Shown here piece by piece: positions 53,201-56,200 of a DNA stretch of 64,000 nt. The DNA is from Lytechinus pictus (Eukaryota): the NCBI RefSeq assembly GCF_037042905.1, contig NC_087245.1:30506001-30570000 (forward strand). The letters run 5' to 3'. Position numbers and translations under genes: made by a program. The notes under the pieces were generated by a model. It was not told the origin of the DNA and ran no database searches. It worked only from the letters and a program-made list of their open reading frames with translations. Positions within the stretch are counted from its first letter, which is position 1; each line of letters begins with the position of its first letter.

Positions 53201-56200
53201 TCAACTCATCTTCAGCAATTTGAGAAAAGAAACAGTGTATTAATATTGTGCCAAAAATATGTTTTTATAGAAAAAGATTTTGGATTTTATATCTTCAGGT
53301 TATAAGGTGTTTGAAGTTATAAAAACATCTTCTGAAGCTTCTTTTTTTTAACTGATAATTTTAACTTGATAATAAGTGATGATTCCTGATATTGATTGAT
53401 ATTTAAGTGTTTCATTGCCTGTTATAATATTCAATATTTTGGATGATGGAAGAAAATTCATTAGTTTATCTTTCTTTTCTAAAATAGAGTTATTAATTTC
53501 TCAAGACTATGGAATAAATCTTAACATCTTTAGATATTATTTATACCTAATAAATCAAGGTTGATATAAGGGTCTGAAATACAGTTACACCTGTCTGTAA
53601 AGTGTTTAAAATTAAGGTGTTTTCTTCAATACTCATTTGGGGGTATTTGTTTGCAAAATGGGCTTCTTTTTACCAAGAGAAAACAAATACATAACCACAA
53701 TACACATTTGACCTTCATAGAGAAGTGGTTGTAGCAGCAAAGACGGGTTTGACTGTATTCTCAGCCCACTTTTGGCAAACTGTGTGCTCTAATGATTTTC
53801 GTGAAAATATCTCCCCAGGCCGCGCGTCTTCGGAGCACCAGTCATATTTATGGGAGCCGACATTACGCACCCGCCGGCGGGCGACAATACAAAACCATCT
53901 ATTGCCGCTGTAAGTTGTTGGTGTATGGTATTTCTCTTGTCTGCATCATGCCCTTAACTGTTTGTTCCAACCCCCTTCCTCCAACACACCTCCCCGATTT
54001 TATCTCAAAACTCAGACCCCGCATATTTAGCGAGCCTGTCATCTTTTGCGGAGCTGATGTTACGCATCCCCCAGCCGGTGACGATAAGAAACCTTCGATC
54101 GCGGCTGTAAGTCATCTGTGTGCGTGTGTTATGAGTCTAACCTCCTTACACGGCTGCACATGAGGGACACCTTTCTCAATAACACTTCTTCAGTTGTCAC
54201 GTGTTATATTACTCTTGATGTGGGTGTTATGTATGTCCATGTTTATTTGTGAGAGTGTTTTTGTTCAGTTCATTTCCCCTTTCTCTCTTTCCCTTTAATT
54301 CTCTTCTCTCTTTTAATGGAATGTGTAGGATTGAATGTGTTGAGGTGTGCGTGTTATGCCTCCCTCACCACCACTGAAAGTTTTCACCTTCTTTTTGTCA
54401 CTCTTTCCTTGGCTATCTATACTTCCCCCTTGAGTGGAATATGGGAATGTTTACATGTGTAAATTGTCTTCTCCACTCATCCCCCTTTTCTCCTCTATCT
54501 CTCTCTCTCTCTCTATTCCTCTATCTTCTCCCCTTACTGTCTGTCCTCCCTGATTCCCTGAGGGGTGATTCATGATTCTGTAATTTTGAATTGTGAACCT
54601 GGAGGCATTATGTTTTTTATTTGTCCGTCCTCCTGCCCTGTTTTCGTTCTCATAACTGGACAGATTTTTGATGAATCACCAATAAACTTGGGTTTTTATG
54701 CACATCAGACGATAATCTGATTTTTTTGGGGGTATCTGCGTTCAAAGGTCAATGTTAATAGAGGTCCTTTAAGAGGTCATGCTGTAATGATAACTTTGTT
54801 ATATGCTTTCTCGTTCTCACTAATACATGAGAACCGTGTGAGGTATCAACTTAAAACTTTGCTGAAATATGGATGTGGAGTAATAATAATCAGGTTAGAG
54901 TTTGGGGTCATAAGGTAAAAGGTCAAAGGGCACAGATGTCATTATTTATTTATTTTTTATTTATTTAAAACGGTTTATTTCAACAAGGGTATCTATAGGG
55001 GCTGAAAAGCCGAATTACATTACCCTTTACAATCATTTACATAAAAATACAATCAATATCAAATAAAAAACTAAATTTACACAAATTCTACATCATAAGA
55101 AATATCAAAACACATAGAAAGGTTGTTTATCATGTTGGGGGTGCATGTATTAAATTACGACATTCGTCCCCATCATGATAAACCAAAATTGAAGATACAT
55201 GCGGCCAAATAACATAAAAACAATGAATTCTGTCGAACCAGAAATTATTGACATGAAATTGTATTCTCTTAATAACCAAAACTTTATATGGTAAAGTCAT
55301 TATCTTATTTCCCCTATCTGGCAAAGGAAAATGACTGTTTATGGTAGGATAACTTTTTTGGACATGATCCAGAGATGTAGCTCTGTTACATTTCCCATGC
55401 TTTTCACAAGGTCTGTTGTCAGCAAATTATAATTCATACGCAATTAAGTCTTTTCAAATCTGGGTTTTATTACATTTGGTCTGGCAACAACTGGTCTTAT
55501 GGATAATTTTCACTTTATTAAAAAGCCAAATGTAAATTCTAACGTCAAATTTACTCTAATTCTATAATCATTGTTTTTGCATTGTTCTAAACCCAAAGCC
55601 CTATGTAAGAATAAATGCTATATGCTTACCAATATTATACACAAGGCTGAGCCATATACGCCCATGCTATGAAGTGCAGTTAATTAAACTCTCTGCCAAA
55701 ATTATGAGAAGCCAAAAAATATCCAAATCTTGTTTCTATGGTATTATTTTATGATGAAGAAAAGTACTGTTGTGATTCCAAGCAGTTATGAATACAATGA
55801 GCACTGAATGTGCTGACAAATTAAACTTTTACTGTTAGAGGTTTGTGTCACAATTGACTATCCATAGTTATCCCCGATAGCGTTTAATTTGAACCCGATT
55901 TCAGAATATGGGCCATAGACACAAGGTCGGTGCTTGCACTGCAAGCCAAGCATGAATTAAATGATATGTCCCCCCCCCCCCCTTATGCGAAAAAAAATCA
56001 ACTTTTTTTCTCTTCTTGCATTTGATATATTCAACACAAATGACAACTACCAAGTGGTTACTTATGAAAGCATGCTGCAATTACTATTTTGCTATAAGCT
56101 ATGGAATAATTCAAACTTTTCTTTGGAAGCATGTAGGGTTAGTATAGTTTAATGGAAATATCAATTATGGCACATTTATTCATGGAATATTCACAATTTT

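Follow-up and report, generated by a model that had tools for sequence, protein, structure and literature searches.

Two alternative versions of the catalytic-Asp exon in a sea-urchin Argonaute gene

Introduction

Mutually exclusive homologous exons are known as a class. A survey of 97 human genes with such exons, as far as its accessible text goes, also includes paralogues in which one of the copies has been lost (PMC4494069), and for the OGDH 4a/4b pair the available part of the report describes distant branch points and gives about 50 nt as the steric limit (PMC7969005). According to partial versions of the respective reports, the shrimp Marsupenaeus japonicus produces Ago1A, Ago1B and Ago1C, whose PIWI domains and tissue distribution are not the same (PMC3510085), CSR-1a and CSR-1b of C. 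elegans are distinct isoforms from one gene that are distinguished by an N-terminal extension (PMC8421154), and human AGO1x is a stop-codon readthrough isoform (PMC7507497). Excerpts of a further report name D597, E637, D669 and H807 as the tetrad of human AGO2, with D597 binding the active-site Mg2+ (PMC11893014), and, in the accessible section of another, swapping the loop 602-608 between human and plant AGO changed the seed affinity about fivefold (PMC10240194).

Here, we describe an Argonaute gene in the window, i.e., the whole stretch of 64,000 nucleotides from Lytechinus pictus that was analysed, in which the exon encoding the first catalytic Asp is present in two versions, termed A and B. 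In line with OGDH 4a/4b and the surveyed pairs, so far as the available texts describe them (PMC7969005, PMC4494069), A and B have equal length and phase, encode homologous peptides and are old, and one paralogue of the gene keeps a single copy. As in OGDH-type pairs, A and B are separated by a short intron with an extended AG-free tract, and the predicted branch point is closer than about 50 nt to the donor of A. In contrast to the homologous exon pairs known from these sources, the host is an Argonaute and the swapped piece carries an active-site residue. Likewise, the shrimp Ago1A/B/C proteins come from an invertebrate miRNA AGO whose splice isoforms vary within the PIWI domain; however, in the accessible text they result from the presence or absence of an 81-nt insertion, with no swap of homologous exons and no catalytic change (PMC3510085). 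CSR-1a/b and AGO1x resemble the present case in that one Argonaute gene gives rise to functionally distinct isoforms, as is predicted here, whereas their catalytic core, in the parts of the reports at hand, is unchanged. Finally, the loop 602-608, the subject of PIWI-loop and central-gate studies (10.1101/476960, PMC8616905, PMC10240194), lies inside the duplicated exon; the available sections of these studies deal with species comparisons or engineered swaps, whereas the variants described here are natural splice isoforms.

We found no account of mutually exclusive catalytic exons in Argonaute in the literature covered, most of it from outside subscription journals; an isoform table or an MXE database entry may exist elsewhere. 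Similarly, alternative catalytic exons are not mentioned in the accessible parts of a lophotrochozoan RNAi survey, of a snail RNAi preprint, in which the pulmonates examined are described as having the complete DEDH motif, and of three AGO structure reviews or analyses. Comparative surveys can miss an exon swap, since the lophotrochozoan survey, according to its available text, kept the longest isoform in the annotation (PMC11114477). Although NCBI gene predictions already contain the isoforms without comment, an Argonaute with alternative catalytic exons appears to be new.

Results

Assignment of the Host Gene

The coding exons of the host gene and the features discussed below are collected in Table 1. 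The gene was assigned by way of its orthologue P0111 from Diadema antillarum, the isoforms of which are approximately 90% identical to the window gene versus approximately 86% to its paralogue. A domain scan of P0111 returned ArgoN, L1, PAZ, L2, MID and Piwi, the protein aligned end to end with human AGO2, and its best PDB matches were human AGO2, AGO1, AGO3 and AGO4. By this route the host is a miRNA-class Argonaute of the AGO clade. The equivalents of D597, E637, D669 and H807 are all present in both sea-urchin isoforms, which with this intact DEDH tetrad are predicted to slice. An AlphaFold model of P0111, with a mean pLDDT of 53.9 and values below 50 over most of the exon, was set aside.

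A second AGO gene with the same exon layout is located approximately 220 kb away on the minus strand of the same contig. It has a single B-like exon, which is identical to A at 61 and to B at 68 of 91 nt, and no A-like remnant was detected in the two introns flanking it. This neighbouring paralogue matches named Lytechinus proteins at approximately 98%; neither a sea-star AGO nor a Lytechinus or Strongylocentrotus record of the window gene was found among the cluster members listed.

Table 1. Positions of the Argonaute gene and of its alternative exons (window coordinates, unless a contig is given).
Feature	Position	Strand	Remark
Coding exons of the host gene (miRNA-class Argonaute)	35223..59408	+	20 introns in the window
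First coding exon	35223-35262	+	
Constitutive upstream exon	53020..53179	+	phase-2 donor, joined to A or B
Exon A	53819..53909	+	upstream, minor mutually exclusive exon; corresponds to human AGO2 583-613
Catalytic Asp codon of A	53859-53861	+	
PIWI-loop codons of A	53874-53894	+	
Intron between A and B	53910..54015	+	106 nt
Exon B	54016..54106	+	downstream, major mutually exclusive exon; corresponds to human AGO2 583-613
Catalytic Asp codon of B	54056-54058	+	
PIWI-loop codons of B	54071-54091	+	
Constitutive downstream exon	56481..56675	+	equivalents of E637 and D669; reached from A or B
Last exon	~G000:C1:30573419-30573532		just past the window end

Exons A and B Are Old Copies under Purifying Selection

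The preliminary description had proposed two versions of one exon, each 91 nt long with an AG acceptor and a GTAAGT donor and spanning phase 2 to 0; these properties, the positions and both peptides were recovered, and the mapping to residues 583-613 of human AGO2, including D597 and the loop 602-608, follows from the alignment with that protein. A and B are adjacent, equal in length and phase, bounded by valid splice sites and encode homologous peptides. A degenerate exon-end pattern matched twice in the whole window, at A and at B, and not once in 100 shuffles.

The two exons are identical at 62 of 91 nucleotides. Among their 30 codons, 8 are identical, 15 differ by synonymous changes and 7 by amino-acid changes, corresponding to a pS of 0.82 and a pN of 0.14 (Nei-Gojobori; Fisher p = 1.4e-8), with synonymous sites being saturated. 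The intron flanks are unrelated, with 7/38 identical nucleotides upstream and 13/34 downstream. As had been suggested, A and B are old copies that are both under purifying selection, as indicated by pS versus pN and by their retention in Diadema. Splicing either A or B between positions 53179 and 56481 leaves the reading frame open. Inclusion of both exons leads to a stop inside B, and skipping of both to a stop in the next exon, which bears out the earlier statement that both or neither would shift the frame.

Both Exons Are Spliced to the Same Neighbours

The four junctions connecting A and B with their neighbours were counted, as the preliminary description had proposed, within window positions 52100-57600 in 4 of the 24 listed runs (X21, X15, X1 and X9); organisms C-E (share 0.23) lay outside this set. 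The runs originate from two coded organisms, one near-identical to the window and one differing by a few percent. X21 comprises raw RNA-seq reads, and X1, X9 and X15 comprise contigs, the depth of which is a rough gauge of the expression level. The records of the latter three bear no RNA label, yet GT..AG intron-skipping joints are present.

All four joints were found, and both exons are joined to the same neighbours in RNA of the two organisms. The joint from the upstream exon to B was present in all four runs (13 reads in X21; depth 68.5 in X15, 114.9 in X1 and 448 in X9) and the joint from B to the downstream exon in three (14 reads in X21; depth 70 in X15 and 448 in X9; none listed for X1). 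Joints from the upstream exon to A occurred in two runs (depth 47.6 in X15 and 6.92 in X1), as did those from A to the downstream exon (depth 6.92 in X1 and 1 read in X21). In X15, coverage of A is limited to its first 30 nt, at a depth of 47.6 that reproduces the bin mean of 9.64 exactly, and a contig at 53151-53846 connects the upstream exon with A across the intron. The contig of the downstream exon in the same run (depth 123) starts at the three bases common to the ends of A and B; this start and the sum of depths (70 plus approximately 48 versus 123) fit two merging paths and would point to a joint from A to the downstream exon in X15 as well, which is not among the joints listed for this run.

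Joints from A to B or skipping both exons were absent from the four runs, in which contigs drop rare variants, X21 provides only 28 junction reads, and nonsense-mediated decay (NMD) could hide such products. Taken together, A and B each take the same place in transcripts, with identical exons on either side, and constitute a real, used mutually exclusive pair, which we regard as practically certain. The proposal that the gene switches by splicing between two tuned Argonautes is borne out in that both exons are used and were never seen together in the four runs, whereas the two functional tunings are something we infer (see below).

B is the usual choice, and A is minor or unseen in three of the four runs: its share amounts to approximately 41% in X15, 5.7% in X1 and 1/28 junction reads in X21, with A unseen in X9. 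As the sample identities are coded, the choice between A and B stands without a tie to tissue. In addition, X9 contains a contig with a joint 53179>57460 that has GT..GT ends (depth 16.5), probably reflecting the paralogue or an assembly chimera.

A Predicted Branch Point Close to the Donor of A

The intron between A and B is the shortest of the 20 introns of the gene in the window. Its sole yTrAy branch-point motif places the adenine at 53957, 48 nt from the donor of A; the intron has an AG-free zone of 99 nt, and the stretch from the predicted branch point to the acceptor of B is free of AG and pyrimidine-rich. Of 32 inverted repeats, the 25 longest included no convincing docking or selector hairpin. 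The predicted branch point would be too near the donor of A for A and B to be joined, and the frameshift together with NMD would serve as a back-up that removes transcripts containing both exons or neither. Plausibly, the predicted branch point at 48 nt and the frameshift enforce exclusivity. An 80-nt tandem repeat is located at 56029-56419, just before the acceptor of the downstream exon.

Conserved Differences between A and B

In AGO2 numbering, A and B differ at positions 586, 588, 589, 594, 598, 606 and 607. The Diadema antillarum isoforms X1 and X2 have five residue differences, all of them inside this exon; X1 matches B and X2 matches A, P0109 and P0111 being orthologues of A, and P0110 and P0009 of B. 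Correspondingly, a tree of the 30 exon residues groups Lytechinus A with Diadema A and B with B (support 90 each). Both genera, whose lineages parted roughly 200 million years ago or earlier, have V/I586, M/C594, N/D606 and T/K607 as fixed differences. At residue 589, the difference is confined to Lytechinus, Diadema having E in both versions, and residue 588 of A is without conservation. The conserved differences would thus point to the PIWI loop and away from the Trp pocket. F587, P590 and V591, which we take to be the GW182 Trp-pocket residues, have the same equivalents in A and B. The suggested tuning of this pocket did not hold up, given these identities and the inconsistency of the neighbouring residues 588 and 589 in Diadema.

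Within ordinary AGO exons, the variability amounts to 3.2 bits at position 606, 2.2 at 588, 1.8 at 607 and 1.0 at 594; the most variable positions are 606, 585, 588 and 607, and all seven differences between A and B are at variable sites. The ordinary set comprises 65 of 77 distinct peptides and is partly defined by D597, where the variability is zero by construction.

The Same Exon Is Doubled in Other Animals

Thirty protein clusters were looked up, with at most 15 members listed for each, the non-echinoid isoforms being NCBI predictions. Two copies of the exon occur in echinoids, amphioxus, bivalves, caenogastropods and a lophotrochozoan-like metagenome locus, L046. The isoforms X1/X3 and X2/X4 of Branchiostoma floridae differ only in this exon, and isoform pairs without a single difference outside it were likewise found in Ostrea, Saccostrea, Crassostrea/Magallana (including C. 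angulata and M. gigas), Mercenaria, Mya, Littorina and Pomacea. The alternative exon was present in 3/8 listed isoforms of Ostrea, 4/10 of Saccostrea, 1/3 of C. virginica, 1/11 of Mercenaria, 9/14 of Littorina and 1/7 of Pomacea, and for Mya in 1/15 cluster members listed. The gene models of Batillaria and Nucella read through both exon copies. A Bradybaena pair with at least 23 residue differences outside the exon represents two genes and was dropped from the 16 rows, leaving 15 pairs. The isoform pairs are identical except for 4-10 residues in this exon, and residue 606 differs in 14 of the 15 exon pairs.

In 9 of the 15 pairs, all of them molluscan, the D597 equivalent is replaced by N or S in the alternative copy. 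It is N in all oysters with a listed pair and S in Mya and in 4/4 caenogastropods (Littorina, Pomacea, Batillaria and Nucella), whereas D is kept in the alternative copy of Mercenaria, amphioxus and echinoids. The four oyster N isoforms checked retain the remaining three tetrad motifs. Since D597 binds the active-site Mg2+, the molluscan N and S forms should, by established chemistry, not slice, and one gene may thus encode a slicing as well as a non-slicing Argonaute. In oysters, Mya and caenogastropods, a slicer gene would give rise to an isoform unable to slice when the copy lacking the Asp is chosen.

In metagenome contigs, a pattern scan returned 45 loci, of which 22 have both flanking exons. 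Two of the latter contain tandem copies with proper AG/GT sites and a pS far above pN, namely the clam-like L013 (704-nt intron) and L046 (64-nt intron); the other 20 have one copy, most of them being one redundant annelid-like type. No second version was found among the listed isoforms of the echinoid paralogue (13/13), Apostichopus, crinoids, hemichordates, Lineus, Pecten/Mizuhopecten (15/15), Mytilus, the second oyster gene (15 listed of 38), pulmonates, cephalopods, spiders, springtails and corals; these negatives are weak, as at most 15 members are listed per cluster and predictions can miss a minor exon. A short-query homologue search with exon A gave 8 matches among 10 candidates, none of them an echinoderm by name.

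Same-length blocks are also swapped elsewhere in lophotrochozoan AGO isoforms (P0074/P0173, P0176/P0187, P0035/P0153, P0162/P0164 and P0166/P0174), affecting the L2-linker exon in Ostrea, Mytilus, Biomphalaria and Lineus, an N-domain exon in Crassostrea and the next exon into MID in Mytilus. Mollusc and nemertean AGO genes may therefore contain several mutually exclusive clusters; second copies of these three exons are absent from the window gene.

Discussion

We consider it likely that the locus as a whole represents a mutually exclusive, regulated, exon-switched sea-urchin Argonaute, with the same exon doubled elsewhere and a molluscan copy predicted to be non-slicing. The choice of A or B would be regulated by tissue or stage, and the two proteins would differ modestly in target engagement, owing to the PIWI loop (NT versus DK at 606-607) and residue 594. 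The published loop swap, in the accessible part of the report, exchanged plant and human sequences and is a far bigger change than two sea-urchin residues (PMC10240194). The chances are about even that the catalytic-Asp/central-gate exon is a recurrent bilaterian splicing switch, providing loop variants that bind targets differently in urchins and amphioxus and, in oysters (D to N) and in Mya and caenogastropods (D to S), a regulated slicer-on/off choice inside one gene that arose at least partly independently.

The human AGO1-4 proteins comprise slicing and non-slicing paralogues that arose by gene duplication and differ mostly at other residues. Similarly, intact and impaired AGOs are predicted to coexist in oysters, Mya and caenogastropods; unlike in vertebrates, molluscs would reach this state by exon choice at the first Asp, and the sea-urchin pair keeps the tetrad in both versions. 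If true, splicing gives molluscs what vertebrates obtain from distinct AGO paralogues. The exon pairs touch upon the questions why most animal miRNA Argonautes retain the slicer site and which role the PIWI loop plays in seed-based targeting: the oyster and snail pairs offer a ready-made controlled comparison of a slicer with a predicted non-slicer, and the urchin and amphioxus pairs a natural comparison between loop variants. Moreover, RNAi efficiency in molluscs and echinoderms could depend on the exon choice in each tissue.

The strongest competing explanation, which we find somewhat improbable, accepts the mutually exclusive exons as real but regards them as near-equivalent in sea urchins, the residue differences being tolerated drift; both copies would be kept since each is included often enough for its disruption to give an NMD-bound or faulty AGO, or because the choice tunes the transcript level. 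As the differences between A and B lie at the most variable AGO positions, drift would place them there as well. Likewise in its favour, the catalytic Asp and F587/P590/V591 are kept in both copies, the paralogue 220 kb away manages with a single B-like exon and no remnant of A in its flanking introns, and the listed holothurian, crinoid and hemichordate isoforms lack a second version. However, the isoform-specific residues at 586, 594, 606 and 607 are fixed in Lytechinus and Diadema, the share of A varies from unseen to 41%, and the molluscan alternative copy alters an otherwise invariant catalytic residue. Given the long conservation of isoform-specific residues and the uneven usage, we slightly favour the view that A and B are functionally tuned in the sea urchin.

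With regard to its origin, the pair could trace back to one duplication event in an ancestral bilaterian or deuterostome, with subsequent loss in many lineages, in contrast to repeated independent duplications. This scenario is in keeping with the doubling of the very same exon in echinoids, amphioxus, bivalves, gastropods and L046, with the upstream position of the divergent copy wherever the order is known (window, L013, Batillaria and Nucella), and with the weak grouping of echinoid A, amphioxus X2 and hemichordate exons (ultrafast bootstrap 67). It is nevertheless unlikely: the L046 copies share a group with each other and a single-copy relative (95), and the alternative exons of oysters (90), heterodonts (94) and caenogastropods (99) fall into three groups that the tree leaves unjoined, both of which favour a repeated origin, although the 30-residue tree is without resolution of deep relationships. 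Moreover, many lineages have one version among the listed isoforms, as do 20 of the 22 metagenome loci, though most of these are the one annelid-like type. The exon was thus probably doubled more than once in bilaterians.

The notion that exon A is a decaying by-product of tandem duplication, spliced only as noise, is largely refuted. The gene and its paralogue do contain several degenerate tandem copies of splice sites, and A is scarce in two runs (X21 and X1) and went unseen in X9. However, A is whole and has no intron sequence in common with B, whereas the tandem splice-site repeats are partial, mostly interrupted and share intron sequence, and hence do not explain the pair. In addition, the saturated synonymous sites, the low pN, the retention of A in Diadema and its share of approximately 41% in X15 argue against decay.

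An assembly artefact, with haplotypes or paralogues collapsed in tandem, which the close paralogue on the same contig might suggest, is refuted by the third sequence of the paralogous exon (61 and 68 of 91 nt), by the X15 contig at 53151-53846 that leads from the upstream exon into A and by the same neighbours in RNA of two organisms, as are cassette exons included together by the resulting stop and by their absence from the four runs.

Further Features of the Locus

Degenerate tandem repeats of splice-site regions are located at window positions 51765-52198, 57468-57834 and 57972-58476 and in the paralogue (L004-L006). They consist of three to four copies of an acceptor with the exon start, or of an exon end with the donor, and about a dozen such repeats precede one exon of the paralogue. 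The copies are partial, include intron sequence and mostly have stops or frameshifts; in RNA, the true sites are used where these regions are visible.

Window positions 48571-48674, 53011-53182, 57401-58541 and 59190-59414 form patches of high identity with the paralogue (93-98% in three exons and 73-88% over one intron and repeats), compared with approximately 80% in other exons. Between two old AGO paralogues, this pattern suggests gene conversion. An orphan copy of a diverged AGO exon with flanking intron lies between the two genes (L054:4339-4773; G000:C1 ~30698400) and is 82% identical to window positions 43640-44073. Echinoid AGOs further have an extended C-terminal insert after VEK(D/E)HD (window 59394-59408, and P0111), where the phosphorylated eukaryotic-insertion loop is situated, and isoform lengths vary there.

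Upstream of the Argonaute gene, positions 17668-21618 of the window contain an intact frame of a Ty3/gypsy-type retrotransposon, encoding 1317 aa with gag, RT, RNase H and integrase; what appear to be its terminal repeats lie at about 15.8 kb and 22.2 kb. An exon of a CENP-O gene is present at positions 2937-3269 (Pfam PF09496, E 6.5e-11).
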